Assembly (NCBI GenBank): GCA_023227985.1
Contig: JALOCB010000003.1
Coordinates: 5,260-69,259, forward strand
Direction of reading: 5' to 3'
From: Candidatus Omnitrophota bacterium
GTDB lineage: Bacteria; Omnitrophota; Gorgyraeia; Gygaellales; Profunditerraquicolaceae
Length of the DNA stretch: 64,000 bases
Shown here: piece by piece, positions 1 to 31,688 of the stretch
How positions within the stretch are numbered: the first letter of the stretch is position 1
Layout of the letters: each line of letters starts with the position of its first letter
Notes under the pieces: generated by a model
The model's database searches: none
What the model was told of the DNA's origin: nothing
The model's input: the letters and a program-made list of their open reading frames with translations, nothing else
Made by a program: the position numbers and the translations under genes

Positions 1-579
1 AGAATGATCCAGCGTCTGGCTATTAATAATGGTACTGCCCACGGCAATAACTATGACGCTGACGGTAAACTTATTGAAACACAGATGAATTTGAAGATGA
101 CCGCGGCGATCGCCGAAGTTATTAAGGCGTATGGTATACAGATAGTCCAGCACGGCGTGACCGGAACGCCTATTAAAAATCTCCAGGCATTGCGTAATGT
201 CGGGATCAGGGCCGCTCATGTCGGGACCAATTGGCAGAATATTATTTGGGAAACTTTAGTTGCCCAGGCGCAGGCGGGTAATTCGACCGCTAAGTCCATA
301 GTAAACCGGATGATCGATGCGACTATCGCTAAGACTGCGGACGTGGAGAAGAAGTATAAAGTATCCGGCCGAAGCGCAGAAGCCAAGGATAGCGTTTATG
401 TCCCGGGAAAAGACAAGAACCTGGACAAGCTGATCGGTAAAGAATTAAAGATGGTATTAGGTGTTTTCAACGACGAGTTGGTTGCTCTTCCTGATGACTT
501 GATTGCCAAGATTGATGAGGCCACCGAAAAATCCGCTACCGAGCATATGCTGGGTTTCGGTTCTGACGGAACAGCCCAG
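1..579 (+). other. Domain: class II FBA, C-terminal two-thirds (N-terminal part lies upstream of the window)
   Basis: LAINNGTAHG and IVQHGVTG match the two His-containing metal-ligand strands. GFGSDGTA matches the conserved FGSxGKA C-terminus of class II aldolases. Confidence 0.75.
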
Positions 580-3500: not shown

Positions 3501-4767
3501 CATGATTTCGGTTATTAAAGCAATGTGGGATAAGTTCGGTATCGATCATGGTACCGGCCTGACTATTCATTCCCAGACTGATTCCAATGAGACTTTCCCG
3601 ATGAAAAGCGGCAGGGCCAGGGATCCCCTGGATATCGCCCGCGGCGATTCCATCCGTGACAACATAATCCCTGCTTCAACCGGCGCAAAAAAGAACCTCT
3701 TTAAGATGATCCCGGAATTAAAAGGCAGGTTCGAGATCACCGCTGTTCGCACCGGTACTGTTTCGGCTTCGACCTGGGAGATGACCATGGACCTTAAGAC
3801 TGAAGTGACCAGGGATGATGTCCTTGCGGCTTTAAAGGATTTCGCCCTGAATAAGACCGACGGGGTGGTGAAATTTCACGAAGGAGACCCGGACAGGAAT
3901 CCCGGGCCTCTGGACGCCAACGCCGTGGTCGGCTGGAATAATGTTTCTATTATCGACAGTTTATTGATCAATGTTCTGGATAATAAGAAAACAGTGACTA
4001 TTAAAGGTTTGTATGATAACCAATCAGCGGCGCCGAATCAAATGGTTTCTAAATGGTCGCCGTGGATGGTTGACGGTTTAAGGCTGCGCCAGATAGTCGG
4101 CGAAAAGAACAGCAAAAAGCTGAACAAAGCCGAAGCTGTAGCGTATGCCAAACTCAACGCCGGTTATGCCGGCCTGCTTAAAGCCGTAAGCGCGGTAAAA
4201 ACCAGCGGAGCTCTGGTGGTCAGCGCTGACGTGGTCTTAAAGAACGCCGGGACGCTTTCATCGCTCAAAGCCTTGAAAGAATCAGGCGCTCTTATTGAGA
4301 TCATTGTCCAGGCGAACAACAAGGCTGTCGCTGATAAAATGGTATCAATGGGCGTTGAACAATTCGCGAGCATTCAGTTCAAGCAGGTTAACGCGATAGT
4401 AGAAGAGTTGAATACCAAAGGTATAACTGATGAAAGAATAGTAGTGCTTAAGACCAAAGCTGAATCGAAAGAAGAAGTCAAGAATACCGTCAAGGTGGTC
4501 AATGTCGGCGAAGCTAAAGTCGCCGAATCTTCTGTTAATGCCATGTCGATAGCAGTGGCAAAGGCAGTAACCACCGTGTTGCAGGATAATACGGAGGTTG
4601 TTGATCAATATCAGCAGATGGCGAAGAATTACGCCGAAGCTAACGACGTCGAGCTAAGCAAACTGGAAGATCTGACCAGCCAGATCTCGGATATGCCGCT
4701 GGTTAAGGTGAGCGAAGAAGTGGTCAAGGCTCAGGTTACTTACGAAGAAACTGTAAACAAGATCTAA
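1..4767 (+). CDS. Giant glycolytic fusion protein 1 (5' partial, frame open to window edge): class II fructose-bisphosphate aldolase + truncated aldolase-like copy + PPi-type 6-phosphofructokinase + GAPDH-like + shared C-terminal module
   Basis: Uninterrupted frame from nt 1 to TAA at 4765-4767. Motifs: LAINNGTAHG, IVQHGVTG, GFGSDGTA (FBA II); GVLTGGGPASGHN, LGGDDTNG, PKTMDNDI (PFK-A family); SCTSNAM, IIPASTGAKK (GAPDH). Confidence 0.85.
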   Translation, partial: RMIQRLAINNGTAHGNNYDADGKLIETQMNLKMTAAIAEVIKAYGIQIVQHGVTGTPIKNLQALRNVGIRAAHVGTNWQNIIWETLVAQAQAGNSTAKSIVNRMIDATIAKTADVEKKYKVSGRSAEAKDSVYVPGKDKNLDKLIGKELKMVLGVFNDELVALPDDLIAKIDEATEKSATEHMLGFGSDGTAQMVKDDYAVQGLVYPEDFSSIKGLYAFKALEGTDKTIMCCNIRSPLSIRGIMRAAQKTGSVVIFQQAMSEFDYTWKGGYAPENAAKLARNIKEAAKKENFHDFMIKGDHLTVKVDDAFLKDKAAQDAVAVVFEKILDEQDVSKREALFNAASKDEVLLANAGVAKAMKAVNKAMTLIKEEVASDFTVFALDASFMPTRLNVLVSAYLAGFIPQDAGLEAEVGEIGGKENSTVADALEFITGIRFKEEVVVSQGVKYSQLVGPRRIGVLTGGGPASGHNAVIAAMVREAEQRGIEIVAIPEGWAGLTKDEVAAQAKVITIKDVEKWGKKGGTMLGTSRTNPYKKEGDAQKVWDNIQKLKLDGLVTLGGDDTNGVTSKLQKEHPDYLFIGLPKTMDNDIALPESDAQTYGFDSFTVKASESFEAGKIDAQSTHRILIAEVFGRAAGFVSARIGANIGATRTLIPEELVDLSKLVEDLRSYYKNNKYGVVVVAEGASVNVDGFKLDENGELTVVKPEDPDVKLLLAAFKSDPMAKAAFIKSMKAEMDDFGHKKLENVGLIVAAVVKTALKADKIDISFAGKADYLFRSADVSKLDAEMTTMLGKAAVEKIADIQNDQLLYAYKGQIKSIPFARELGGRVLDYKGAHKDEYMLANLALIDEKTEITLSDASVNEDLFQAAVRNLKGLNPGELMTLSFSEMKVLLWKLNSLDQETGDNQEVVQSVRRILHRIDDRQIEQVKKFANIGVFARENTAYNLESVLKDDNILVIAANALIFRAGAFAEFYHNWEPGVNLAAIKSMKGGKEATAEEFVRQNSRYNGPFSPYQLKGLRVLKDERRVIDGVAVNFIFVPADKNIGRPDIKIPYFGPETTNQQVLDTMKALGLELDVMAYYGPTSETVQPRIFKEFIEAGLPVVAASPVNTDAVKNMLKAKFQQEGVADDMLDEAVSKAFKEGLYSATRKEIGADVKIVDTLSCTSNAMISVIKAMWDKFGIDHGTGLTIHSQTDSNETFPMKSGRARDPLDIARGDSIRDNIIPASTGAKKNLFKMIPELKGRFEITAVRTGTVSASTWEMTMDLKTEVTRDDVLAALKDFALNKTDGVVKFHEGDPDRNPGPLDANAVVGWNNVSIIDSLLINVLDNKKTVTIKGLYDNQSAAPNQMVSKWSPWMVDGLRLRQIVGEKNSKKLNKAEAVAYAKLNAGYAGLLKAVSAVKTSGALVVSADVVLKNAGTLSSLKALKESGALIEIIVQANNKAVADKMVSMGVEQFASIQFKQVNAIVEELNTKGITDERIVVLKTKAESKEEVKNTVKVVNVGEAKVAESSVNAMSIAVAKAVTTVLQDNTEVVDQYQQMAKNYAEANDVELSKLEDLTSQISDMPLVKVSEEVVKAQVTYEETVNKI
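586..1308 (+). other. Domain: second class II aldolase-like segment, truncated after the EAEVGEIGG strand
   Basis: IMCCNIRSPLSIRGIMRAAQKTGSVVIFQQ, IKGDHL, FALDASFMP and LEAEVGEIGGKE follow the order of FBA II strands 1-6. The GTxHG and HGxSG strands are absent before the PFK domain starts. Confidence 0.55.
1357..2493 (+). other. Domain: 6-phosphofructokinase, PPi-dependent type
   Basis: RIGVLTGGGPASGHN, GGDDT (nt 1672-1686; Asp where ATP-PFKs have Gly), PKTMDNDI, VVVAEGA, DDFGHKKL. Confidence 0.8.
2851..4083 (+). other. Domain: glyceraldehyde-3-phosphate dehydrogenase-like
   Basis: Catalytic-Cys motif SCTSNAM (Cys codon 3487-3489), LTIHSQTD, NIIPASTGAKK, PELKGRFEITAVRTGTVSAS. The N-terminal dinucleotide loop is degenerate (ILVIAANALIFRAG instead of INGFGRIGR). 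Confidence 0.7.
4156..4764 (+). other. Shared C-terminal module, copy 1 (alpha/beta-looking part plus conserved helical tail)
   Basis: Aligns over about 200 aa with the C-terminus of ORF 4926..12698. 25 of the last 34 residues are identical, and a 20-nt stretch ctgaccagccagatctcgga is identical at 4672-4691 and 12603-12622. Confidence 0.8.
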
Positions 4768-4925: not shown

Positions 4926-5156
4926 ATGTTCGTAAGGTTATCCCAAAACAACCTGTTCAGGAAGATCGTCGGCATTCTTATTCTTTTACAATTTTCAGCC
5001 GGTTTTGCCGTGATTAGGGGTTATGCTGCTCCCGGAAATTTGCGGCCTGCCGCCGTCAAACAGGATGGTTCCCGGTCCGGGACTATCCAGAATTCGCTTG
5101 ACGCGGCCAGCCTGGATAAGGTTATAAAAACCCCGGTCATTCATAAGGACGGCGGT
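4926..5156 (+). other. Shared N-terminal leader, copy 1 (basic N-terminus, hydrophobic stretch, RGYAAPGNLRPAAVK, then KDGG)
   Basis: Position-by-position alignment with the N-terminus of ORF 12779..17302. Confidence 0.75.
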
Positions 5157-8100
5157 ATAACCGGCCAGGATGTTTTTAAGAATATCCTTGGCGAATACCG
5201 TGTTTCCTCCACGATAAACAATCTCGCTTTCGGGACGTTCGTCCAGGGGCAGATCGACCTTAGTTCGGTTCAGAACCGGGAAGCGCTGGTCAATAATTTC
5301 GGGGAGATTAAGAGCAAAGATCGTTTTTTTACCCTTGAATACGCGGGAATTCCGCTTGCCCTGGTCAAGAAGGCCGAAACCGGAGAAATTACCGTCAAGA
5401 AAGTAGTCGAAGACATTGCTTCGATCCCGCTCAACATCCTTTCCGACAATGCCGAAAAGCTCAAAACCGAAGGTGTTACTTCCTCGGATATCCTGGTCCG
5501 CGATTTTCTTATCCTTGAAAAAAGGTCGCGTATCGACATCACTCAGTGCATGACCGTAGAGTTTGGCGAGCTGCGCGACTACGTATACAATCTGGCTAAA
5601 AATGTCGGCCAGGAAAAGGCACTGGAGATGGCATCGGCGTTTGCGGGTAAGGCTACCGTTGACGAGGCTATGGCGGAAGTCGGCGAGAAAGCTAAGCAGT
5701 TAGGCCGCGACCAAGCGAAGGACACAGGTCTGGCGCTGGCCGGCGGTAAGGGTTTGAGCCTTTCGGTCATGAGCCGCGTGGTTGACGTGCCGCCTGGTTT
5801 GAACGTTACTACTACCGCGTATTTTAAGTTCGTCAAAGATAATAAACAGGTCTGGGAGAAGATCTTTAATGAGCTGCAGACCTTGGATACTATGGATGAC
5901 CAGAAGCGCGACGTTGTCACTTCGGAGATCCGCGATGTCATTAAAAGCGCGCCGATACCCGAAGACATCAAGGCTGAGGTAACAGCAATGTACCACCAGC
6001 TAAGCGTTATCCGTTTTCTTGCCGGTAAACCTTCGCCCGCTCCGGTGGCTGTCCGCTCTTCCGGCACCAAAGAGGATATTCACGTTAAAACCTGGCTGCC
6101 GGTTTCCACCGGTTCCCAGGCCGGCCAGTCGGATACATTCCTTAATGTTAAGGGCGAACGGGATGTCCTGGATAAATTACGCGCCGATTGGGCGTCTTTA
6201 TTTACCGATCGCGCGGTCAGCTACCGTGATGACGCCACCTTCTTGCAGTTCTCTGGAGCCATCGATTTTAACGGTAAGACTTCTCAGGATGTCTATTGGG
6301 GGATCGTGGCGAAGCTTCGGGAATACTCCAAGAAACTGGATAAGCCTGAATATAACGTGTACGCTGACTTAATGAGTAAAGTCACCAGCCCTAACCCTGG
6401 GTCGGTGAGCCTGATGAACGCCATGGAGGAGATCCTGAGACAGGAATCGAATCCGGAGATGTCCAATGCCCTTGCCGTTCTGAAGAAGAAAGCAGAGGAG
6501 GTTGTGCATCCCGAACAGATCGGTATCGACGTTGTGATCATGCAGATGGCTAAGAGTTATCTTGCCGGCGTGCTTTTTACCGTCAATCCGGCGACCAAGA
6601 TGGCCGGTGTGGCCCAGTCGTTATACAAGTCATGGTATATGGGTGATGATTCGCTCGTGTACCGCGACGCGAAGACCGATATTATCCAGGGAACCAGGCC
6701 CATAGTGGTGAGCTTTGATGTGGCCTTCGGCTACGGCGAGAACGTAGTCGGCGGCAAGGTAAACCCGGACAAGTTCATTATGGGCACCTACGACGGCGAG
6801 AGCTGGTTTGTTATCGAGAAAAGCAAAGGCAATAAACTTATTCAGATGAAGGACGTGGAAGAAGTCATCGATCTCCTCAAAGACAAGATATCGGAAAAGG
6901 GCCAGCGGCAGCTCGCTATGACCGTGAAAGACGCGATCGCGTATGATGAGGTCGGCAAGCGGATCAACGGCATTATGGCGACCAAACTCTACGGTATCAA
7001 GTATCTTAAGGCGCTTGAGGGTAAAGAGGAAAGCGATAAAGACAAGAAGGCCCGCGTACAGGCTATCGCCAATGAGATTGCCGACATGGTCAAGAATAAG
7101 GTTTCCGAGGATGAAGTTGTCGCGTTCATCAAGGGTAACTTTGAGGTCGTTAACCGGAAGGGCTATAAAGGCATTCAGGAAATGGCGCTTTCGGGAGTGG
7201 TCAGGGAAGTGTTTGAGAAAGTCCAACAGGCCCAGGCTGAGACCGACCGGGGTATGTTTAAACTCTCAAAGCAGCTCGGCGATATGGGAAAGGCCGATAC
7301 GCTTATCCATATGATCAAGGAGGTTTGGGAGAATAAGGAATTTACTCTTTCCGACCGCCAGGCGATTCTTGACAAACTGAACCTTACCAACCAGGAATTG
7401 CGTAATATGAGTTACCTTATCCGCGCGCTGGTGGATAATAGCTTTACTTCAAATTATGAGACTACTTTAACCCACCAGGATACCTTTACTATGACCGATG
7501 ATCAGGCCCAGTATGTGGCGCGTATGGGTTGGGCGATCACCGAATATTATAAGGATGCCCGAGATATAGAGTATGCCATCGAGATAGATAAAACCGCTTC
7601 TTCCGACAAAGCGGTGAGGCTTTACGTTGTGGACGACCTGGGCAATGTCCAGGGAATGGACAATAATGGCAACCTGGTAACGGTGAAGTCCGAAAAGGAT
7701 AAAGCGCGTATAAAAGAAGCGAAGCTGCGCCTGTATAACGTGCAGGCCCGTCCGTATACCGCGGAATACTTGAAGGTGGATGTAATGCGCGCCCGGACCG
7801 AAGCGGATGAAAAGTGGCTTGAGGAGAATTCTCCTAAAGCGATTGCCAGCGGGACTAAGGGAGAGAACGCGACGCAGGGTTATGTGCTGGTGTTCGATCC
7901 TAACAAAGACGTTGCCTGGCACGCGGACCAGATCCGTCGTTTGAAAGCCGGAGATTTTACTGCGGAGGAAAAAGCCCAGATCATGGCTATGGGGTTTAAT
8001 CCCGAAGAGTATGGTTCAGGCAAAGAAAAGCAATTGTCGGTTATTCTTTATCTGCTTGAAGCTGACCCGAATCATGATCCGATCATGCGCCTGGTTGATT

Positions 8101-11100
8101 CGGTTGTTACTATCCGCGGCGGCGATACCTGCCACGCGGCTATCTTTTGCCGTGAACAAGGGATCCCTGCGGTCACCGGCGCGGGCAAGGTTATACTCAA
8201 CGGCCAATTGCTTAAGACCGGTGACGCGGTTACCGTTGATGCTAATAACGGGAATATTTACGAAATGCCCGCTGATGCCGGAGCGCGCATTCCGATCAAC
8301 TACGTGAAATTCAAGATTAAACCGTATGGCATCCCCGGCGACGACGACAATATGCCGTATCCGGGCATCGGCCAGATCATCGCCGCGGCAAGTGCCGCTC
8401 AGCAGAACTCGCCTATTATGCTTGCGGTTGACGCGGTCGGTAACTCGCTGACCCGCGCCGAGTTCAAAGGCGAAGAGATCGGTATCAACGTTTACGCCGG
8501 CTATGGCCATTATCTTTTACAGCAGATCAAGGCCGGAAAAATAAAGGAGCCAGTGAGGGTGCGTGTCCAGGAATTGATCCAGGGCAAGGTTCCCGGCGCA
8601 AAGAGGTTCGTGGACAATATTGAAAATGTTATGGCAGGCGCTTTTGCCAAGGATCCCGCCGCGCGTTCGGCATATCGCGACATTATGGGTAAGGATTTCA
8701 ATAAGGCGGATAGCCTGCAATTGCTGGAGTTTTTCGATTTGAAGAGCGACATTGAGCTGTATGGATTGGATGCGCTTAAACTGGTAAAACAGCAGGTTGA
8801 TATTCTTGATCTCGTTCCCCGGCTTCCGGAGAATATGTATCAGACGCTTGAATATCTTTATGGCGCCACTCAGCGCAGGCTCAACTATGATTATAATATT
8901 ATCGCCGATCTTCAGAACCATCCGTGGATACTGAAAGAAGTCGATTCTAAACTCGCGGAAAAGGGTTACGCGACGTTCAAGGAATACATCACTAACGAAT
9001 TCCTGTATTTTTACAATTTGATGGGTTTTACCATTGCGCCCGATCAGACCGCCAAGAACAGGGCTTACGATTTCGCCCAGGATAAGATCCGCGGCATGCC
9101 CGGTTCCGAGGTTTTTTCCTGGCCCGGAGTCAATCCGTTGGTCGGTTTGCGCGGTACGTCGTTGGAGATCGAGGCCTTTGACGAAGATTTCGGCGGCAAT
9201 CAGCTGGTATTGGATTTTCTTTTTGATTCCGTGATCCAGGCGCACCAGAATACCGGTAACCAAGCCTGGTTTTATGTGTTTGTCCGTTCTTCCCGGGAGT
9301 TAGAGACCCTGGATAAGATCATTGAGCACAAGGCTAAGCAGACCGGGAAGCTTCCGAAAGAGATCGGGATCATGATCGAAGTTCCCAGTGCCGCTTTGGT
9401 GGCTGATGAGCTTGCTGTTAAGATGTCCGAGATGGAGAAAAAATATAAGAAGTATGGCGTTGAGCATACTTTCTTTTCCTTCGGCACTAACGACTATTCG
9501 CATCTTGCTGGTATGGGTGACCGTGAAGACCCGCGAATGAAACTCAAGATTATGGATCCCGCAGCGATCGAAGCGATCGGCGAGATGAAAGCAGCGGGGT
9601 ATTATTATGATGATGCTGCTAAAGTGCTTCCGTTGATTGATGAAGGCGCTGATGTTATGCAGCAGCTTATGGAAACAGTGGTTGCTGCGGCTAATGGTTC
9701 AAGCGTGGCTACCTCGCTTTGCGGCGAGGCGATCACCGCCCTGGTTAACCGCGGGGATTATGAGACCGCAGGCAAGATAATGGCGCTTCTGGATTCTTTC
9801 GGCGTGAGCATGATGAAAGTCCGCCTCGCAGCTTCAATGACGCGCGTGGACACCATGGCGGCTACCAAAGGGATCACCATTCCGGAAGCCGGACGTTCGA
9901 TCCTGTTCGATTTGTCTGCCGGCGAGGTGAAACAGAAAAAGGGCGTCATCAAGGGCGAGATAATATTCGTTGATAATGCCGATGATCTCGTCCCGAACGT
10001 CCTTAAAGGCCTTCAGGGTCCGGAGCTGACGAAAAAGAAAGAGATGTTCAAGCTCCAGAGCCTGGAAAACGCCCGTTCGACTATGCGTACCTTCAATAAG
10101 ATCGTAATTATCACTAAAAACCTCGTTGCTCAGCAGGAGCCTGAGTTGGTCGCGGAGATGGGCAAAGCCGCATTCAGCAAGTTTGTCAATGACGGCCTGC
10201 TTAAAGATATCGGTAATGGGCAGTATGTCTGGACGAATCTGGGTGTAAAGACGGAGAAGTTCAACCAGGAATTGACAATTCAAGGTTTCTCTGAAAAAGA
10301 ACGTAAAGCTATTGAAGGTTTGTGGCAGAAGGCCTGGGATAACAGCATTGAAGGGCTTGAGCGCCGCGGAATTGATTGGGATGATCTACAATATGCCAAG
10401 GCTATAATCGTTGATGCGGACGTTAACCTTGATGGCTGGGATGTGTTCCGCAAGGACAAGAGTATTATTCCGACCCGTATCAAGGCTACGGTCAAAGGTA
10501 TAAGCTCCCGCCGTGCGGAGTTAGAAGGGCAATTGGCAACTATAGATTACGCCGCTAAGAAGGTCTACAAGGATTTTCTCAGCGTGGAAAAGATCGCTGC
10601 CGTCCTGCGCAGTCTTCCTATCCCAGCGGAAAAGCCTATGATAACTACGCAATCGGCTGTCGCGGAGAACGCCAACAGTGTATACCAGAAGATCGGGTAT
10701 CATCCTAAGCTCCTTCTTGCCTATGAGCGGAATGCTGTGAATGAACTTGGAAAGATATTCGAGGAATATGTAGGCAAGCTGGTTGAAGAAGTTGAAAAAG
10801 TTACTCAGGAGACCGACGTTCAGAAACGCGTATGGCTTTTACAGAAACTGCAGAATAAAGTTGGCGGGCTTGCGGAACCGATGATCAAATCGTTTATGAG
10901 CGATGTGCTTTCCGAGGCCATGCGCACAGGTGCGGTAACGCTGCCGGATAACTGGAACAAGAAGCTTTGGGAGGCCTATCGCAGCGACCTGGAAAGCGAG
11001 ATCAGTAAGATCCTTAACGGAAAGACGGTTGAGCAGTATTTTATCGCGCAGTTCAGCGAACAGATGAAGGAAGTGCTCTCCGCCAACAAAGGGGCATTGG

Positions 11101-12698
11101 TTGTCCATCTTTTGGGAAGCCTCAACTGTGTTGATTTCTTTAATATGAAAGGCGGTTTCCTGGTTGAACAGGTCAATCCCAACCCTGATTACGGCATTCT
11201 TGGAGCGGCGCGCGCAATAGGGGATATGTGGGAGATAAACCGCATGGAATTGTCCGCTTTTAAGGCGGTATGGGATAATCTGCCGGTTGACCAGCGCGGT
11301 AATTTTGGCCTGCAGATCACCAATCTCAAAGGCACCCAGTCCGGCGCGGTGGTGATCGGCTGGCGTAATATTCTGAAACAAACCGGTATTATCCCGGGGC
11401 AAGACGGTTTGCAGGTTGGCGTCAATATCGTCACTCCGGCGGATAGCATCGCTGCGGATAAGTATTTTGAGTACTTTAATACGCTCGGAAGCGGGTTAAG
11501 TTTTATCTCATATGATGCGTTGAAGCTTGGCGCTGCCTGGGCCGGCGTGGATATTTTTTGGAAGGAATGGAGGAGGCTGGCTAAGGAAGATGAGTTGTTG
11601 AGGTTCGGCGTCATGACCGGCTGGATGGCGGAAGCCAAGGCTCTGAGGTTCGGCGGCAAAGTCCTTTCCTTTGATATTTCTGACGAAGCCAAACAGACTG
11701 ACGGCGGCGCTGAGGTTGTGCCTTACCGGGTAGTGGTGGAGAATCTCTTCCGGGGGATCATTAAGAAATATGATGCTTTGGATAACGGCCAAGCTCTTTC
11801 TCTCGAAAAAGAAGAGTTGGAGGCAATACTCTGGATCTTGAATTCTTCTCCTTTTGAGAATATGTCAAGCCCGTTTGCCGCGATCAAGAGTATGAAGAAT
11901 ATCAGGAATGTGATCGAAAGGCTCAGCGATGACCAAAAGAAGGCCCTAAGTGTACTTTCACAGGGCTTGGTTTTTGTCAATCACGGGCTGGATAAAAAGG
12001 TGGCGGCATTGCTCGTAGACAAGAAGTTGCTCGACACCGCATATGAATCCGACACGGCGGTATATAAAGGGTTGAACAGCGGTTTTGACAGCTTCGCCAA
12101 TGCCTTGAAAGAGGTTAAGAATGCCGAGGGCGCTTTAGTGGTTAGCGCAAATGCTGTGTTGAATAACGCCGGAACGCTGAGAGTCCTGAGAGAAATAAAA
12201 GAAACCGGGCTGACCTTGGAAATAATCGTCCGGGCTGATACGGAAGATCAGGTGAATAAGCTGATTGCCCTTCGGGCAGACGAAGTCGCGACTATCCAGG
12301 CCAAGCGGCTGTCAGTTGTGCTCAGCGGCTTGAAGAACGCGGGTATAACCGATGGCAAGATAGTGGTGATTAAAGGCAAAGAAGAAGTAAAAGACGCGGT
12401 AGAAGCCGGCGTAAAGGTCGTAGAGATCTCCATGCCTAAAACAGAGGAGTCCAGTATCAACTCCATGGCCTTAGTTGCGGCAAAAGCGGTAATCATAGTG
12501 TTAAATGGTGAAGAAACGGTTGCCGCGCAATACCGGGAAATGGCGGTAAAATACGCCGCAGATAACAGCGTAACCTCTGAAGAATTGGATGATCTGCAGG
12601 ACCTGACCAGCCAGATCTCGGAGATACCCATGGCCAAGGTCAGCGAAGAAGTCGCTAAGGCGCAGGCCACTTATGAGGAGACTATAAGCAAGATATAA
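4926..12698 (+). CDS. Giant fusion protein 2: leader + PEP-utilising dikinase (PPDK/PpsA family) with large insertions + degenerate duplicate of its His and TIM-barrel domains + shared C-terminal module
   Basis: 2590-codon ORF with GGAGGG 4 nt upstream of the ATG. Motifs: LAGGKGLSLSVM, VAVRSSGTKEDI, GSQAGQSDTFLNV, IRGGDTCHAAIFCREQGIPAVTG (His codon 8133-8135), FFSFGTNDYSHL, SLCGEA. Confidence 0.85.
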   Translation: MFVRLSQNNLFRKIVGILILLQFSAGFAVIRGYAAPGNLRPAAVKQDGSRSGTIQNSLDAASLDKVIKTPVIHKDGGITGQDVFKNILGEYRVSSTINNLAFGTFVQGQIDLSSVQNREALVNNFGEIKSKDRFFTLEYAGIPLALVKKAETGEITVKKVVEDIASIPLNILSDNAEKLKTEGVTSSDILVRDFLILEKRSRIDITQCMTVEFGELRDYVYNLAKNVGQEKALEMASAFAGKATVDEAMAEVGEKAKQLGRDQAKDTGLALAGGKGLSLSVMSRVVDVPPGLNVTTTAYFKFVKDNKQVWEKIFNELQTLDTMDDQKRDVVTSEIRDVIKSAPIPEDIKAEVTAMYHQLSVIRFLAGKPSPAPVAVRSSGTKEDIHVKTWLPVSTGSQAGQSDTFLNVKGERDVLDKLRADWASLFTDRAVSYRDDATFLQFSGAIDFNGKTSQDVYWGIVAKLREYSKKLDKPEYNVYADLMSKVTSPNPGSVSLMNAMEEILRQESNPEMSNALAVLKKKAEEVVHPEQIGIDVVIMQMAKSYLAGVLFTVNPATKMAGVAQSLYKSWYMGDDSLVYRDAKTDIIQGTRPIVVSFDVAFGYGENVVGGKVNPDKFIMGTYDGESWFVIEKSKGNKLIQMKDVEEVIDLLKDKISEKGQRQLAMTVKDAIAYDEVGKRINGIMATKLYGIKYLKALEGKEESDKDKKARVQAIANEIADMVKNKVSEDEVVAFIKGNFEVVNRKGYKGIQEMALSGVVREVFEKVQQAQAETDRGMFKLSKQLGDMGKADTLIHMIKEVWENKEFTLSDRQAILDKLNLTNQELRNMSYLIRALVDNSFTSNYETTLTHQDTFTMTDDQAQYVARMGWAITEYYKDARDIEYAIEIDKTASSDKAVRLYVVDDLGNVQGMDNNGNLVTVKSEKDKARIKEAKLRLYNVQARPYTAEYLKVDVMRARTEADEKWLEENSPKAIASGTKGENATQGYVLVFDPNKDVAWHADQIRRLKAGDFTAEEKAQIMAMGFNPEEYGSGKEKQLSVILYLLEADPNHDPIMRLVDSVVTIRGGDTCHAAIFCREQGIPAVTGAGKVILNGQLLKTGDAVTVDANNGNIYEMPADAGARIPINYVKFKIKPYGIPGDDDNMPYPGIGQIIAAASAAQQNSPIMLAVDAVGNSLTRAEFKGEEIGINVYAGYGHYLLQQIKAGKIKEPVRVRVQELIQGKVPGAKRFVDNIENVMAGAFAKDPAARSAYRDIMGKDFNKADSLQLLEFFDLKSDIELYGLDALKLVKQQVDILDLVPRLPENMYQTLEYLYGATQRRLNYDYNIIADLQNHPWILKEVDSKLAEKGYATFKEYITNEFLYFYNLMGFTIAPDQTAKNRAYDFAQDKIRGMPGSEVFSWPGVNPLVGLRGTSLEIEAFDEDFGGNQLVLDFLFDSVIQAHQNTGNQAWFYVFVRSSRELETLDKIIEHKAKQTGKLPKEIGIMIEVPSAALVADELAVKMSEMEKKYKKYGVEHTFFSFGTNDYSHLAGMGDREDPRMKLKIMDPAAIEAIGEMKAAGYYYDDAAKVLPLIDEGADVMQQLMETVVAAANGSSVATSLCGEAITALVNRGDYETAGKIMALLDSFGVSMMKVRLAASMTRVDTMAATKGITIPEAGRSILFDLSAGEVKQKKGVIKGEIIFVDNADDLVPNVLKGLQGPELTKKKEMFKLQSLENARSTMRTFNKIVIITKNLVAQQEPELVAEMGKAAFSKFVNDGLLKDIGNGQYVWTNLGVKTEKFNQELTIQGFSEKERKAIEGLWQKAWDNSIEGLERRGIDWDDLQYAKAIIVDADVNLDGWDVFRKDKSIIPTRIKATVKGISSRRAELEGQLATIDYAAKKVYKDFLSVEKIAAVLRSLPIPAEKPMITTQSAVAENANSVYQKIGYHPKLLLAYERNAVNELGKIFEEYVGKLVEEVEKVTQETDVQKRVWLLQKLQNKVGGLAEPMIKSFMSDVLSEAMRTGAVTLPDNWNKKLWEAYRSDLESEISKILNGKTVEQYFIAQFSEQMKEVLSANKGALVVHLLGSLNCVDFFNMKGGFLVEQVNPNPDYGILGAARAIGDMWEINRMELSAFKAVWDNLPVDQRGNFGLQITNLKGTQSGAVVIGWRNILKQTGIIPGQDGLQVGVNIVTPADSIAADKYFEYFNTLGSGLSFISYDALKLGAAWAGVDIFWKEWRRLAKEDELLRFGVMTGWMAEAKALRFGGKVLSFDISDEAKQTDGGAEVVPYRVVVENLFRGIIKKYDALDNGQALSLEKEELEAILWILNSSPFENMSSPFAAIKSMKNIRNVIERLSDDQKKALSVLSQGLVFVNHGLDKKVAALLVDKKLLDTAYESDTAVYKGLNSGFDSFANALKEVKNAEGALVVSANAVLNNAGTLRVLREIKETGLTLEIIVRADTEDQVNKLIALRADEVATIQAKRLSVVLSGLKNAGITDGKIVVIKGKEEVKDAVEAGVKVVEISMPKTEESSINSMALVAAKAVIIVLNGEETVAAQYREMAVKYAADNSVTSEELDDLQDLTSQISEIPMAKVSEEVAKAQATYEETISKI
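5688..6845 (+). other. Domain: dikinase N-terminal ATP-grasp (nucleotide-binding) region
   Basis: GGKGLSLS..VPPGLNVTT, VRSSGTKED, QAGQSDTFLNVKG, DRAVSYR, IDVVIMQM..AGVLFTVNP. Confidence 0.75.
7833..8270 (+). other. Domain: phosphohistidine swivel domain
   Basis: GTKGENATQGYVLVF ... ILYLLEADPNHDPIM ... TIRGGDTCHAAIFCREQGIPAVTGAG ... GDAVTVDANNGNIY. Confidence 0.8.
8343..9845 (+). other. Domain: PEP/pyruvate-binding TIM barrel
   Basis: NPLVGLRGTS, GIMIEVPSAAL, FFSFGTNDYSHL, SLCGEA. Confidence 0.75.
9918..11675 (+). other. Degenerate duplicate of the swivel and TIM-barrel domains; catalytic His and GTND motif lost
   Basis: GVIKGEIIFVDNADDL ... AKAIIVDADVNLDGWDVF ... GQLATIDYAAKKVY mirrors the swivel-domain layout without the His. 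EQVNPNPDYGILGAARAI, LQVGVNIVTPADSIAAD and LSFISYDALKLG mirror NPxLGxRG, MIEVPSAAL and FSxGTNDL. Confidence 0.5.
12078..12695 (+). other. Shared C-terminal module, copy 2
   Basis: EGALVVSANAVLNNAGTL..LEIIVRAD..ATIQ..GITDGKIVVIKGK...DLTSQISEIPMAKVSEEVAKAQATYEETISKI aligns with copy 1. Confidence 0.8.
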
Positions 12699-12778: not shown

Positions 12779-12961
12779 ATGTCCAGGCCGTCTAAAAACA
12801 ATAGTATCTCTAAAATAATTTCCGGCGTTGTGATCGCGCAATTTATCATGAGCAGTATAGCCCTGCGCGGTTATGCCGGCACAGACAATTTAAGGCCGGC
12901 TCCGGTCAAAGATTCCGACCGGATAAGCGTTCTGGCCGATGAATTGCAGAAAGACGGCGGC
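12779..12961 (+). other. Shared N-terminal leader, copy 2 (RGYAGTDNLRPAPVK ... KDGG)
   Basis: Aligns with 4926..5156. Confidence 0.75.
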
Positions 12962-15900
12962 AAACTGGCTGAATGGATCCATATCTTAGCGGAAAATACA
13001 ATTGTGGGCGATGCCGCTAAAGGTTCGAACGTCGGCATGGTCATACGGCTGGGAAAGCTTGTTGAAGAGAATATATCCGGGTCCATATTAGGGCATTCGG
13101 CAAACCGGAAGGCGTATATAAAGGAAGTGGGCGCTCAAATCGCTGAAGGGCTGCGTTTGACCGGAATGGAAGAAAAGGCGATCGCGGCTGCCAGCCGCAA
13201 GATAGCTTTTTCCAGATACGATAACATCATGAATCACCGGATCCAGGCGATGTTTCAAGCAGGGATCAGGGAGATCTGCCTTTGCGTAGGCAGTGATAAG
13301 GATAAGCTCACCGTTGAGGAAGAGATATCGGATGTGCTTGCGCAGTTGCAGGTGTCTTTTGCCGATGTCTCTTTGGAACAAATAAAAAAGATAATTTTCC
13401 ACGTGGCTTGGGAGCCTGCGGCGAATATCGGCACCGGTACTGCTGTCGGTCCGGAAAAGATCAAGCTGGTCCATCAGGCTATCTATGAATTCTTTGCCGA
13501 GAAGTATAATACACCCTCCGGGTATATCGGCGATGTTTGGGGGAAGTCATTGAAAATACTTTACGGCGCAAGCGTTGACGGAAAGAACGTCGACGGCATA
13601 ATGGCGGTGAAAGAGGATAAAGGCATGGCTTTGGTGCACGGCGTGTTATTCGCTTCTTCGGGTAAAAAGGCCGATGGCTTCCTGGCTGTGGCCGAGGGGG
13701 TTAGCCGCGCCGCGGAAAGGGATAACGCCCAGTATGTCTGTTTTGTCAACCTTAAGGAATTCGCCAGGGCTGAGAAAGATGAGGCTTTGACTTTTGTCGT
13801 CGAGATCGTCCGGGCCATTGCTTTAGGACGGATCGATCCCCGGCATACCATTCTGGCGATCGCTGACCAGGATGTACATCTAAAGGAGTGGCAGGACGCG
13901 ATCGTCGGCAGAAGCGTTTCGATGTCGGACGGCGGATACGCGTATGTTGAAGGAACGAACTTTAAGGACAAGAATGTGCTTTTTCGCCCGGATTATAACA
14001 CTCCGGCTTCGGTAAAGACCGATGATCAGGGTAATGTTTTGTCGATCAAAATATCCGACGCAAGCAGGATCGTTGATTCCTTCCCGGCTTTGACCAAGAT
14101 CCTGAAAGATAAGCCAAAACATGTGGTTGTCGTTGTCCATTTCGAACCTAAGGTGTTGAATCCCGCGACCGGTAAGAAAGACAAGAAAAATCTGTCTACT
14201 AAAGTCACAGCGGACAAACTTAAAGAATTGCTGCCGGCGGAATATAAAGATAAGGTAATATTCCTGGCTGATTCAGTCAATGACAATGGGATTGCCGCCG
14301 AAGCAATGCGGGCTATAGAAAGTTATACTGATTCCGAGATCATCGTATTGGAAAATATCCGTTTTGCCAAAGGCGAAAAGAAAGGTGCCCCCGAGCTTAA
14401 TGATCCTAAAGGTGTAGCTTTACGCAAACAGCTTTCAGGATTAGCGGACGAATATGTGGTGGATGCCTTGGGTAATATTCATCGCGCCCACGCATCAATG
14501 CTGCCTTTGCCCGGGGTGCATAAAGTCATGGGCAGTCTTGTGGAAAAAGAGATTAAAGTGTTCAACCGGATACTTAACCCGGCGCATCCTTATGCCGGGG
14601 TTAACGGCGGTAATAAGGTTGAAGATAAAGTGGATACCATGGATGTGTCTTTGTCGACGATGCAGGAAGGCGACGCGATCATCATCGGCGGGGCTATGGC
14701 CTACACTTTTTTAAAGGCGCAGGATCCAACATTGAAATTGGGCAAATCACTTGTTCAGGCGGATAAAGTTGATCTGGCTAAGACTATACTTGAGAAGGCC
14801 GCCCGGAAGAAGGTGCGGATAATCCTTCCAGTGGACCATCGCATCTCGGATAAACTCGCTCCCGGAGCAGCAGAATTGGTTACTGAGGGGCTGGAAGTGC
14901 CGGATGGGTACATGGCGGTAGATATCGGACCCAAGACTGAAAAAATAGTCGCCGAGGTCTTAAGTAATGCCCAGACCGCTTTTTGGAACGGCCCAATGGG
15001 CGCGTTCGAGGATGAGGCTGGTGGTTTTAATAAGGGGACTTATACGGTTGCCAGGGAACTGCAGAAAATGGGCAGGTCCGGACGCCTGGCCGGTATCGGC
15101 GGCGGGGAGACACGTATGGCAGCAATTAAGGCCGGGGTTACCGATGCTGACGGCGTGTTCATGTCCAGCGGCGGCGGTTCCACGCAGGAATATTTCGCCA
15201 AGAAAGGCAATCTCCCGGTGATCAAGAATCTGGAGAATGACGAAACCGCCCAGAAAAATCTCGTCCTCGCGGGGAAATTGGGGGTAGAACCCGCGGATCT
15301 GGCGCGTTTTGAAGCGGCAGACAGCAGTATTTATAATGCCTTGGGAGATAAACTTTTCAACGGCTATATATCTCAGGTCAGAAGGTTGCTTCCCAGGTTT
15401 TCGACAGGCCAGAAATTAAACGGCGCTCTGTCCAAAGCAGAGGTCTCTGCGGAGGTGATTAAAGATTCGCGCGGAAACAATACTGTCCGGGCAACTTTAA
15501 AGATCGGGGATATTGTTACTGTCGGCGAAGTCCCTGCAGGCGCTTCCAAAGGGGCAGCTGAGGCTTTTGCTTTTCCGCCGAAGGAAATAGATAGGGCGAT
15601 CGCCAACGTGGCGAAGATCCAGGAGATACTTAAGAACAGCGGCCTGGATATAAGCAAACACAGCGATCTGCGCAAGACGGAACAATTGATCATTGCCGCG
15701 GCCGGTGAAAACTTCGCGACACTGGGCGCGAACGCCACAGTCCCTATTTCCTGGGCCTTGTGGAGGATGGCGGCAGCGTTGAATAATATGGAACTCTGGG
15801 AATACATCCGGATCAATGAGCCGGGAGTTGTCGGTAATGATCCGGTTTATTTCTATATGAACATATATAACGGCGGGCTGCACGCTTCCGGAGGCGACGC

Positions 15901-17302
15901 TTCGGTATTGGGTACAGTTTGGACCGAATTCCAGGAGATGCTGATCGTGCCCGTGGGCGCTAAAACTCACGCCGAAGGCGTGGCTATGGGAGATAAGATC
16001 GACCAGGAATTGAAGAAAATACTGAAAGGTAAATTCGCGGAAGCGGATATAATGCGTAAAGATGAAGCTGGTTTCGCGGTCAAAGGCCTGGGAAAAAGCG
16101 AAGACGCGATCGCTTATGTGGTACAGGCGATCAGGAACGCCGGCTATGAGCCCGGTAAAGACGTAAAGCTGGCTTTGGATGTCGCCGCGACCTCTTTCTA
16201 CGACGAGAAAGAGAATATATACAAGTTCCAGGGCCAGAAATTGACCTCAGCCGAGATGGTCGATTTTTACGTCAAACTGGTAAAGCAATATGACGGCCTG
16301 TTCCTTTCTATAGAAGACGGCCTGGCTGAAGAAGATTGGCAGGGATGGGTAGAGCTAACCGCGGCTATGAAAGAAAAAGGCGTCCTGACTATAGGCGATG
16401 ATCTGTACGTTACCCAGCACGGCCGGTTGAACAAAGGGCTGGCGATGAACGCGGCTACAGCGATCCTGATCAAGGTTAATCAAAATGGGACCCTGGGCGG
16501 AACTATCGATGTTATGAAGACCGCCAAGGCCAATGGCATTAAAGCTGTGGTATCGCACCGTTCCGGAGAAACTCTGGATGCCGGGATCGCGGATCTGGCT
16601 TACGCAACCCGGGCGTTCGGGCTTAAAACCGGGGATCCTCAACCTTTGGTTGATTTCCAGAATCCGAACGAACTGGTGCGCCGGGCTAAGTATGACAGGA
16701 TGATCGAGATCCAGAAACAAGAAAACATCCAAAATGACCCGGCATTATCCAGGCCTAAAGCGCTGTTGATCAATGCGGATTTTTTCAAATCCGGCGCGGT
16801 TAAGAACGCTGTGGCGGAAATAGCGAGATTAAACGGGAATATCAATGTGGTGATCTACGGAGATAATGCCGAAAAGCTAAAGACGCTGGTAGGAAATCCC
16901 GATATTATCGCGGTGCGGAGTTTGACTGCAGCTGTCTCTGAAATAGCTAACCGCGGGGTAAAATCTTCTCAGGATGCCGTTATTTTGACGCCTATGCCGT
17001 ATAGCTCGGAAACGTTTATTGTTCAAATCCGCAGCGGAGAAATAAGCACGCTGGCTTTGGCCAAGGCGGTAAAGCAGTTATTCAAGAACGACCGGATCAC
17101 CGCGGCTATGGATGAATTCTATAAATCGCTGGTTGATAACAAAGTGGTTTCCGAGCAGGACTACATAAATACAAGGGAAAAAATCCTAACGGATCTGATC
17201 GACGGTGTTTACAACCTGGGTGAGATTAAGTTGACAAAACAGGTATCTGATGTTATAGAAAAGGAGCGGCTGGTAACCGAAGAGTTCGTGGGTAAAGTGT
17301 AA
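12779..17302 (+). CDS. Giant glycolytic fusion protein 3: leader + triosephosphate isomerase + phosphoglycerate kinase + enolase + divergent C-terminal module
   Basis: 1507-codon ORF with GGAGGG 5 nt upstream of the ATG. TPI: SILGHSANR, AWEPAANIGTG, ILYGASV. PGK: LFRPDYNTP, NIHRAHASM, IIGGAMAYTFLKAQ, FWNGPMGAFE. Enolase: IKDSRGNNTV, VPAGASKGAAEA, KDEAGFA, IEDGLAEEDW, IGDDLYVT, LIKVNQNG, SHRSGET. Confidence 0.88.
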   Translation: MSRPSKNNSISKIISGVVIAQFIMSSIALRGYAGTDNLRPAPVKDSDRISVLADELQKDGGKLAEWIHILAENTIVGDAAKGSNVGMVIRLGKLVEENISGSILGHSANRKAYIKEVGAQIAEGLRLTGMEEKAIAAASRKIAFSRYDNIMNHRIQAMFQAGIREICLCVGSDKDKLTVEEEISDVLAQLQVSFADVSLEQIKKIIFHVAWEPAANIGTGTAVGPEKIKLVHQAIYEFFAEKYNTPSGYIGDVWGKSLKILYGASVDGKNVDGIMAVKEDKGMALVHGVLFASSGKKADGFLAVAEGVSRAAERDNAQYVCFVNLKEFARAEKDEALTFVVEIVRAIALGRIDPRHTILAIADQDVHLKEWQDAIVGRSVSMSDGGYAYVEGTNFKDKNVLFRPDYNTPASVKTDDQGNVLSIKISDASRIVDSFPALTKILKDKPKHVVVVVHFEPKVLNPATGKKDKKNLSTKVTADKLKELLPAEYKDKVIFLADSVNDNGIAAEAMRAIESYTDSEIIVLENIRFAKGEKKGAPELNDPKGVALRKQLSGLADEYVVDALGNIHRAHASMLPLPGVHKVMGSLVEKEIKVFNRILNPAHPYAGVNGGNKVEDKVDTMDVSLSTMQEGDAIIIGGAMAYTFLKAQDPTLKLGKSLVQADKVDLAKTILEKAARKKVRIILPVDHRISDKLAPGAAELVTEGLEVPDGYMAVDIGPKTEKIVAEVLSNAQTAFWNGPMGAFEDEAGGFNKGTYTVARELQKMGRSGRLAGIGGGETRMAAIKAGVTDADGVFMSSGGGSTQEYFAKKGNLPVIKNLENDETAQKNLVLAGKLGVEPADLARFEAADSSIYNALGDKLFNGYISQVRRLLPRFSTGQKLNGALSKAEVSAEVIKDSRGNNTVRATLKIGDIVTVGEVPAGASKGAAEAFAFPPKEIDRAIANVAKIQEILKNSGLDISKHSDLRKTEQLIIAAAGENFATLGANATVPISWALWRMAAALNNMELWEYIRINEPGVVGNDPVYFYMNIYNGGLHASGGDASVLGTVWTEFQEMLIVPVGAKTHAEGVAMGDKIDQELKKILKGKFAEADIMRKDEAGFAVKGLGKSEDAIAYVVQAIRNAGYEPGKDVKLALDVAATSFYDEKENIYKFQGQKLTSAEMVDFYVKLVKQYDGLFLSIEDGLAEEDWQGWVELTAAMKEKGVLTIGDDLYVTQHGRLNKGLAMNAATAILIKVNQNGTLGGTIDVMKTAKANGIKAVVSHRSGETLDAGIADLAYATRAFGLKTGDPQPLVDFQNPNELVRRAKYDRMIEIQKQENIQNDPALSRPKALLINADFFKSGAVKNAVAEIARLNGNINVVIYGDNAEKLKTLVGNPDIIAVRSLTAAVSEIANRGVKSSQDAVILTPMPYSSETFIVQIRSGEISTLALAKAVKQLFKNDRITAAMDEFYKSLVDNKVVSEQDYINTREKILTDLIDGVYNLGEIKLTKQVSDVIEKERLVTEEFVGKV
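12962..13648 (+). other. Domain: triosephosphate isomerase
   Basis: Candidates for all three catalytic residues are present: Lys in VGDAAKGSN, His in GHSANR, Glu in WEPAANIGTG (Glu codon 13412-13414). The C-terminal FASSGKKADGF resembles GGASLKxxxF. Confidence 0.7.
13931..15223 (+). other. Domain: phosphoglycerate kinase
   Basis: KNVLFRPDYNTP, LENIRF, GNIHRAHASM, GGNKVEDK, IIGGAMAYTF, VDIGPKT, FWNGPMGAFE, SSGGGST. Confidence 0.8.
15431..16708 (+). other. Domain: enolase (paralog of the stand-alone eno at 30393..31658)
   Basis: Motifs as listed for the CDS. Ser of SHRSGET is at 16553-16555. Confidence 0.85.
16751..17299 (+). other. C-terminal module, divergent third copy
   Basis: ALLINADFFKSGAV..INVVIYGDN..IIAVRS..AVILTP followed by a helical tail. 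Same strand/helix rhythm as copies 1 and 2 but low identity. Confidence 0.4.
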
Positions 17303-29303: not shown

Positions 29304-29330
29304 CCGCCTGCCACGGTAGGTAAAACAAAA

Positions 29331-29362
29331 AACCCGCTCAAAATTCCGAGCGGGTTTTTTGT
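29331..29362. terminator. Rho-independent terminator, probably bidirectional
   Basis: AACCCGCTC (29331-29339) / GAGCGGGTT (29349-29357), with an A-run upstream and TTTTTTG downstream. It sits between convergent plus-strand and minus-strand units. Confidence 0.8.
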
Positions 29363-29408
29363 TGGAAATTGCGGGGGCCAGATTTGAACTGACGGCCTTC
29401 AGGTTATG

Positions 29409-30033
29409 CTTGCTACTACAGCTTTAGCTGCTCCGCTATCAAGCGGATTCGTAGTCTGGACTATATCTTGACCAACTATCGTTGGCCCCTGCCGTTTAGT
29501 CTCTACACTTTTCTCCGTTGCCGGAGACTTAGCTCGGTATTACCTTGACTTGCGTCGAGGGTTTCACCGAATTTGACAGGATATCCTTCAACCGTTACCG
29601 GTTGAGGAGCCCTTCGGACAATAAACTCCATCGTTGCCTGTACAGTGCGGACATCGGTTTGCGCTGTCGTTTGCCGCTTTCGACTAAACTGATGGTGCTG
29701 CCGAATTTGGTAAAGACAGAGCAGGGGACGATGTAGAACACATTCAGGGGTTCGATTACAGCACCGCAAAATCGAAATCATCCGCGTCATATCTCGCCCG
29801 CAACATCCTTCGTCTGTTCGTCTTGGTCCGTCTGACATCGACACAATACATGTCGTTTTTCTGGTCGAACCAAGCGCTTTTGACTTGAATGCGCAGAAGT
29901 TTACCATCCAGGTCGATCGCCAGATCATAAGGGAGGCGATCCCCGAACGGTTTGAGCACCCTGAACCCTTGTTTCAGGAGTTCAGTGATGACGGCAGATT
30001 CTGCGATGTCAGATTTGAGTTTTTTATCCATTG
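29409..30033 (-). mobile_element. Group I intron (625 nt) in the anticodon loop, carrying a homing-endonuclease ORF
   Basis: The 5' exon ends in U and the intron ends in G. The 3' 190 nt contain GGUGAAACCC...CAAGGUAAUACCGAGCUAAGUC and GUAGAGACUAAACGGCAGGGGCCAACGAUAGUUGGUCAAGAUAUAGUCCAGAC. These closely resemble the P4-P6 and P7/P3'/P8/J8-7 core strings of the Anabaena tRNA-Leu and Tetrahymena introns, as recalled from memory. Confidence 0.8.
29595..30031 (-). pseudogene. Intron-encoded PD-(D/E)XK-type homing endonuclease (I-Ssp6803I-like), split by a frameshift
   Basis: The ATG at 30031 opens 91 codons (MDKKLKSDIAESAVITELLKQGFRVLKPFGDRLPYDLAIDLDGKLLRIQVK...DFDFAVL) ending at TAA 29756-29758. 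A plausible continuation VIEPLNVFYIVP..ISLVESGKRQRKP..YRQRWSLL runs in the -1 frame to TAA 29595-29597. Confidence 0.6.
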
Positions 30034-30126
30034 AGCCTGACGAGCTACCGGACTGCTCCACCCCGCGAATCTATTATGAAAGAACAGGTATATTTTACTC
30101 TTATTTTAAAGAGTTCAAAGCCTTAT

Positions 30127-31688
<1,562 letters not shown>

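Follow-up and report, generated by a model that had tools for sequence, protein, structure and literature searches.

The window analysed here, a stretch of 64,000 nt from a Candidatus Omnitrophota bacterium (GCA_023227985.1, contig JALOCB010000003.1), contains on its minus strand an initiator tRNA-Met gene (tRNA-fMet, 30067-29369) that is interrupted by a 625-nt group I intron (30033-29409) carrying an endonuclease gene in two frames. The features of the locus are as follows.

30034..30067, minus strand: tRNA-fMet 5' exon, C1 to U33 (CGCGGGGTGGAGCAGTCCGGTAGCTCGTCAGGCT; sequence reading); its last base, U, precedes the 5' splice site
30033-29409, minus strand: group I intron, 625 nt, between U33 and anticodon C34; boundaries taken from the spliced tRNA
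29756..30031, minus strand: frame-0 part of the endonuclease gene, 91 codons and TAA (ORF list; PF11645 positions 1-90 of 138, E 1.7e-30)
29756..29758, minus strand: the lesion, TAA formed from Tyr codon 92 (TAT) minus its third base, with the gap between 29757 and 29756 (DNA alignments)
29595..29756, minus strand: out-of-frame C-terminal remnant, codons 93-145 and TAA, in the -1 frame (PF11645 positions 93-137 of 138, E 1.2e-5)
29437..29633, minus strand: ribozyme core (Rfam RF00028, 61.6 bits against a gathering score of 50, E 5.6e-15)
29608..29612, minus strand: internal guide sequence GGGCU, 3' strand of P1 (alignment to ORF-less introns; RNAfold)
29589..29604, minus strand: P2 hairpin CAACCGGUAACGGUUG (sequence reading; alignment to ORF-less introns)
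29369..29408, minus strand: tRNA-fMet 3' exon, CAUAACC... to A73 (CATAACCTGAAGGCCGTCAGTTCAAATCTGGCCCCCGCAA); CCA is not encoded
29325..29360, no strand assigned: G+C-rich hairpin between an A run and a T run, located between a convergent 540-aa gene and the tRNA (sequence reading)

Once joined, the exons form a 74-nt tRNA that ARAGORN calls tRNA-Met(CAT). Both the CAU anticodon and a C1 x A72 mismatch are present in the spliced molecule (ARAGORN; sequence reading), the latter being a mark of bacterial initiator tRNAs. Three consecutive G:C pairs were sought at the base of the anticodon stem and only two were found (A29:U41, G30:C40, G31:C39); the triplet is a feature of the E. coli initiator, and natural exceptions to it exist. 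The anticodon-stem sequence GUCAGGCU (window 30034-30041 and 29399-29408) is common to many related loci. On the raw window ARAGORN did not detect the split initiator gene and made a sole call, a tRNA-Thr elsewhere. Since a tRNA finder misses the split gene, routine annotation would list the initiator tRNA as missing.

The surroundings of the tRNA were also surveyed. The hairpin at 29325-29360 is probably a bidirectional terminator; among Rfam leader models only the terminator part matches it, on both strands and below threshold. A simple scan for promoters and terminators detected no tRNA promoter and missed the hairpin (29360-29325). Contigs of two other assemblies stop beside the tRNA 3' end, one (L001) at 29356 and the other (L088) at 29367, while similarity to a related locus from another lineage (L089) ends at 29366, where two extra genes (252 and 192 aa) follow in L089. 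The tRNA 3' end (window 29356-29369) is a breakpoint of both synteny and assembly. On the plus strand, the window carries three consecutive very large ORFs at 4-4767, 4926-12698 and 12779-17302.

The intron displays the anatomy expected of a group I element. It is preceded by U and its final base is G, the 3' end reading ...GCAAG. Five relatives score between 54 and 77 bits against RF00028, a range that includes the score of the window. Four other genomes supplied ORF-less tRNA-fMet introns (216-244 nt), which align with the window at intron nt 1-4 and resume at (A/U)GGGC. The sequence GGGCU pairs with GGCU|C at 30037-30033, the splice-site U.G wobble included, when folded as a mini-construct with RNAfold. 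As GGGCU is the P1 guide sequence, the endonuclease ORF sits in the P1 loop. The opening hairpin of the Rfam alignment (GGAGUUU...GGGCUCC) was considered as P2 and rejected, because the ORF-less introns place GGGC in P1, P2 being the next hairpin. The final ORF codons are written over the guide sequence and P2. The UAA of the P2 GUAA loop serves as the endonuclease stop codon (29597-29595), and the ribozyme core match shares the last 13 codons of the ORF. In many homologues this stop is absent and the called protein runs into the ribozyme core, yielding tails such as KRLKDSLSNSVEPS (alignment A1, columns 164-196); such tails come from translation of the ribozyme. The 186 nt beyond the ORF differ from the L089 intron by 5 mismatches. 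Between the frameshift, which is inside the P1-loop insert, and the guide sequence downstream of it there are about 150 nt. Because the lesion falls within this dispensable insert, the ribozyme should be unaffected, and the intact-looking ribozyme should continue to splice the tRNA precursor.

The endonuclease ORF begins with an ATG at 30031-30029, i.e., at intron nt 3, and frame 0 extends for 91 codons down to 29758-29756, as originally predicted. From about 29776 to the TAA at 29597-29595 (55 codons) the -1 frame is free of stops, which, together with the match of this segment to the C-terminal profile positions, bears out the earlier proposal of a continuation in that frame giving about 145 aa in total. 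The joined 145-aa sequence, to which the full-domain match applies solely in this reconstructed form, covers positions 1-137 of the 138 positions of PF11645 (PDDEXK_5) with an E-value of 1.1e-41 (142.5 bits against a cut-off of 26.1). It also aligns without gaps, junction included, with I-Ssp6803I (PDB 2OST; residues 3-139 versus 4-140, E 3e-45). Both comparisons agree with the suggested identity of the product as an I-Ssp6803I-family PD-(D/E)XK endonuclease, a match that evidently far exceeds chance. Residues D36, Q49 and K51 are invariant among 19 aligned sequences and align with YDL and QVK of 2OST. We take them to be the D...(Q/E)xK active-site positions, the catalytic role being assigned from knowledge of the fold. 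A database search returned 1173 homologues; those with a named source are mostly proteins of Omnitrophota MAGs and bear the NCBI name 'group I intron-associated PD-(D/E)XK endonuclease'. An NCBIfam scan of the truncated and the repaired proteins gave zero family matches. AlphaFold2, run on the joined protein with the 19-sequence alignment, gave a mean pLDDT of 48.6, which is too low for the break to be placed on the fold.

The gene does not encode this domain in one uninterrupted ORF: frame 0 ends after codon 91 and the remainder lies in the -1 frame, which makes the locus a pseudogene of the I-Ssp6803I family. Alignment of both halves to PF11645 places the N-terminal part on positions 1-90 and the C-terminal part on 93-137, so that the 91-aa product is short of the 138-position profile, in line with the split that had been inferred. 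This product ends within the conserved hydrophobic segment DFDFAxLYI; what the domain loses is its C-terminal third (positions 93-137), to which the invariant K-R-x-R-K-P motif belongs. Residues 93-145 comprise 13 invariant columns of the family alignment, all 13 of which are retained in the out-of-frame remnant of the window. The enzyme is a tetramer with extensive subunit contacts and a 23-bp pseudo-palindromic target (PMC3384342). Given the missing positions and the tetrameric state, a loss of activity is a reasonable inference, and the truncated endonuclease is presumably inactive. The predicted target in an intronless tRNA-fMet gene reads GCTCGTCAGGCT|CATAACCTGAAGGCC.

An intact sister allele allowed the lesion to be located to the base. 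Clustering at 90% identity groups the truncated product with a 145-aa protein (P0123) whose residues 1-91 are 100% identical to those of the window and which continues as ...AVLYIEPLN..., its C-terminal part differing from the window remnant at 2 residues. It is encoded at L089 (JGI 3300029959 Ga0272380_10001554), and the allele is also present on a 1.87-Mb contig. Synteny at L089 equals that of the window (FtsH, enolase, DivIC and tRNA-fMet with the intron), and the two introns are 95-97% identical. In P0123, unlike in the window, codon 92 is TAT and the ORF continues unbroken for 145 codons. The DNA alignment opposes GTGCTGTATATTGAA in L089 to GTGCTGTA-ATCGAA in the window; at the codon level, L089 reads GTG CTG TAT ATT GAA and the window GTG CTG TA- ATC GAA. 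TATAT against TAAT fits only the loss of the middle T, hence of the third base of codon 92. A gap in codon 92 is likewise obtained with the next closest intact relative (L002, 87% amino-acid identity), and Y is the majority residue in the family alignment at this column. A single deleted base consequently creates the stop codon and the frame change together, TAT ATC becoming TAA TC, in a TATAT context that contains no homopolymer. Alleles with and without this T are told apart within window 29740-29780 by the strings CTGTAATCG and CTGTATATCG.

The original prediction had placed the shift inside 29759-29777, an interval that includes a T4 run (29771-29768). This placement is slightly off: the missing base lies within the stop codon itself, between 29757 and 29756. 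The DNA alignments to L089 and L002 exclude the T4 run as the shift site; that interval and its T4 run would suit a ribosomal slip and not the mutation. A degenerate pattern of the junction, in which codon 92 could have 2 or 3 bases, was run against a metagenome collection without the lineage of the window and returned only the L002 contig.

We then compared substitution patterns between the window and L089 using Nei-Gojobori estimates, with the endonuclease gene repaired. These were dS 0.51 and dN 0.037 for enolase, dS 0.83 and dN 0.040 for DivIC, and dS 0.17 and dN 0.006 for the endonuclease gene, which differs from its sister by 15 synonymous and 2 non-synonymous changes (dN/dS about 0.03). 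Polarisation with L002 assigned both non-synonymous changes to the L089 branch, so that the window branch has 7 synonymous changes and 0 non-synonymous ones. With about 97 synonymous and 338 non-synonymous sites, rough arithmetic (7/97 x 338) gives a neutral expectation of about 24 non-synonymous changes for the whole window branch. As none was seen, the neutral period would be limited to approximately the last 12% of the branch (a rough Poisson bound). This comparison shows purifying selection on the endonuclease gene until very recently, and the 7 synonymous against 0 non-synonymous changes point to a very recent knockout. Such a recent knockout accounts for all 13 invariant C-terminal positions still being in place; we attribute the perfect preservation of the C-terminal part to youth, while continued selection would look alike.

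The same comparison bears on the movement of the intron. The proportion of synonymous differences is lower in the endonuclease gene than in enolase (Fisher p = 3e-5). Measured per 100 nt, identity to L089 amounts to 75-96% in the flanks (mostly 80-92%) and to 95-97% from about 30130 through the tRNA 5' exon and the intron. Based on this higher intron identity and the lower dS, the intron copies would share a more recent ancestor than the host genes, which suggests, as a lead from one genome pair, that the intron moved between Omnitrophota lineages by lateral homing or gene conversion.

We examined the family further in 417 loci from species-representative genomes, of which the best 80, ranked by their best single segment, were surveyed. 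A 2012 review describes the family as generally cyanobacterial (PMC3384342); the best 80 of the 417 loci span Omnitrophota, Bacteroidota, Margulisiibacteriota, Patescibacteria and others. Four of these 80 contain one in-frame nonsense codon at a conserved position, in an endonuclease gene that is well conserved elsewhere:

L007: TAG at codon 110
L041: TGA at codon 32
L060: TAA at codon 49
L073: TAG at codon 23

These are independent one-hit knockouts, or recoding in the TGA case (L041); four such loci among the best 80 of 417 indicate that one-hit knockouts recur in the family. At least nine of the best 80 loci (L058, 1184-1914; L063, 1176-1914; L061; L064; L071; L074; L081; L082; and the more distant L040) possess an ORF-less group I intron of 216-325 nt at the same tRNA-fMet site, with a free-standing endonuclease gene downstream of the tRNA. 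In L058, L063 and L081 this free-standing gene starts shortly after a hairpin and a T run. The hosts of such loci include Omnitrophota, Margulisiibacteriota, Scytonema, Saprospiraceae and Bacteroidia. The combination of a free-standing gene with an ORF-less intron may be a stage that precedes or follows invasion by the intron, or may reflect collaborative homing. Taken together, related loci show every stage, from intact intronic genes through intronic genes with a nonsense codon or a frameshift to free-standing genes beside ORF-less introns.

Three explanations had been offered for the split gene: decay, a homopolymer sequencing error and programmed -1 frameshifting. A sequencing or assembly error would imply that the true genome has TAT at codon 92 and a continuous 145-codon ORF. 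A single missing base is a typical form of error, and the deletion is known from assembled contigs rather than from reads. However, ENA ERZ27247363 (k141_735648, 137 kb), JGI 3300037067 / NCBI GCA_041653715.1 (2957 nt) and NCBI GCA_028711865.1 (182 kb) all contain the identical 625-nt intron and, in it, the same deletion; at least the first of them has MEGAHIT-style contig names. Each differs from the window by 1-3 flanking SNPs (positions 30462, 30272, 31247 and 32260) and by zero gaps, making, with the window, four haplotypes that are distinguished by flanking SNPs alone and are identical throughout the intron. Because four assemblies that can be told apart in this way share the deletion, a random error is excluded. 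The TATAT site offers no homopolymer for the error that had been suspected, 4 contigs of the sister lineage have the T in a near-identical context, and long unbroken ORFs run through the rest of the window (95% coding density; uninterrupted ORFs of 1587, 2590 and 1507 aa). We therefore hold an error to be extremely improbable. The exact 91-aa and 101-aa products are recorded from these assemblies, and NCBI annotates both as ordinary proteins, not as pseudogenes; the 101-aa version begins at a GTG inside the tRNA 5' exon. An intact allele may co-exist with the broken one in the same populations.

Programmed -1 ribosomal frameshifting or transcriptional slippage would instead provide a low, regulated amount of full-length endonuclease, for which the dosing of a toxic nuclease is, in our view, a plausible rationale. 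In the -1 frame, 55 codons without a stop are family-like throughout, and a U UUU run precedes the stop codon by 10 nt. Yet no X XXY YYZ heptamer was found in GAU UUU GCG GUG CUG UAA UCG, and CUG, the codon before the stop, cannot pair again after a shift to the -1 frame. If ribosomes slipped at U UUU, C-G-A would take the place of the invariant A89 and of the V and L after it, yet frame 0 agrees with the family consensus (DFDFA-V/I-L) as far as the stop, and the lesion turns the consensus Tyr codon straight into that stop. To our knowledge, runs of four T are far too short for transcriptional slippage. Furthermore, the sister allele is plainly intact, and all of the best 80 of the 417 related loci match in a single frame, albeit in a ranking by single segments that under-represents frameshifted copies, the genome of the window included. 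This explanation, like that of an error, has next to no chance of being correct. It is very unlikely, too, that the gene is functional as it stands, with the 91-aa fragment active alone (in DNA binding or as a splicing aid) or reassembled with a C-terminal piece. The assigned D36, Q49 and K51 are all in the N-terminal fragment and invariant, and both pieces remain open without signs of decay. The break nevertheless falls inside DFDFAxLYI, thirteen invariant residues are lost or detached from an enzyme whose tetramer relies on extensive subunit contacts (PMC3384342), the candidate C-terminal piece (GTG at 29741, 48 aa) is devoid of a purine-rich ribosome-binding site, and the youth of the deletion accounts for the preservation. 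We see similarly little prospect that the broken allele is being kept by low -1 frameshifting, spontaneous or programmed, by a two-piece enzyme, or by a 91-aa fragment binding the target site or the intron RNA; if true, such residual function would explain the perfect preservation of both halves across the four haplotypes.

Decay of the homing endonuclease gene is the option supported by the comparison with related genomes, which yielded both the intact 145-aa sister allele and the identical deletion in other assemblies. That such decay would have followed fixation of the intron, as had also been suggested, is a conjecture. We consider it very probable that the locus is a mobile tRNA-fMet intron whose P1-loop gene of the I-Ssp6803I family was recently inactivated by a genuine 1-nt deletion. 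According to this scheme, the anticodon loop of the initiator tRNA-Met gene is host to a mobile group I intron with the endonuclease gene in its P1 loop. Deletion of the third base of codon 92 generated a TAA at which translation ends after 91 residues, while the ribozyme, spared by the P1-loop position of the lesion, would splice the tRNA as before, and the broken allele would represent the degeneration phase of the homing cycle. For a known homing endonuclease family, the homing-cycle model predicts one-hit pseudogenes of this sort, and the case is as such ordinary and well documented. The value of this locus is as a cleanly dated example, with a one-base difference between alleles, an identifiable intact ancestor and demonstrable selection until very recently. 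On the practical side, the initiator tRNA is missed by standard tRNA finders and the truncated product is annotated at NCBI as a normal protein.

Genes expressed by programmed frameshifting (prfB, dnaX, IS3-family transposases) likewise display two consecutive family-like frames offset by one base. They differ from the window, which has no slippery site, a shift that is not conserved in homologues and an intact sister allele. The closest known counterpart is found in Synechocystis sp. PCC 6803, whose tRNA-fMet intron measures 655 nt and has an ORF of 150 aa (PMC1995217). The protein family (PF11645; 2OST gapless over 137 residues) and the host gene, tRNA-fMet, are the same, the sizes are similar (625 nt and 145 codons in the window), and the insertion point of the window, after GGCU and before CAUAACC, is that of the cyanobacterial loci L067 and L081. 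In contrast to the I-Ssp6803I system, the window belongs to an Omnitrophota host and not to a cyanobacterium, its ORF starts at intron nt 3, and its gene is broken by a 1-nt deletion so that no full-length enzyme is encoded. The locus operates on the pattern of the I-Ssp6803I / tRNA-fMet intron system and evidently descends from it, albeit in a different phylum. With the degenerate genes of the invasion-fixation-decay-loss homing cycle (Goddard and Burt 1999, as cited in PMC1995217), it shares a one-hit inactivation in a conserved endonuclease gene next to a ribozyme that is kept.
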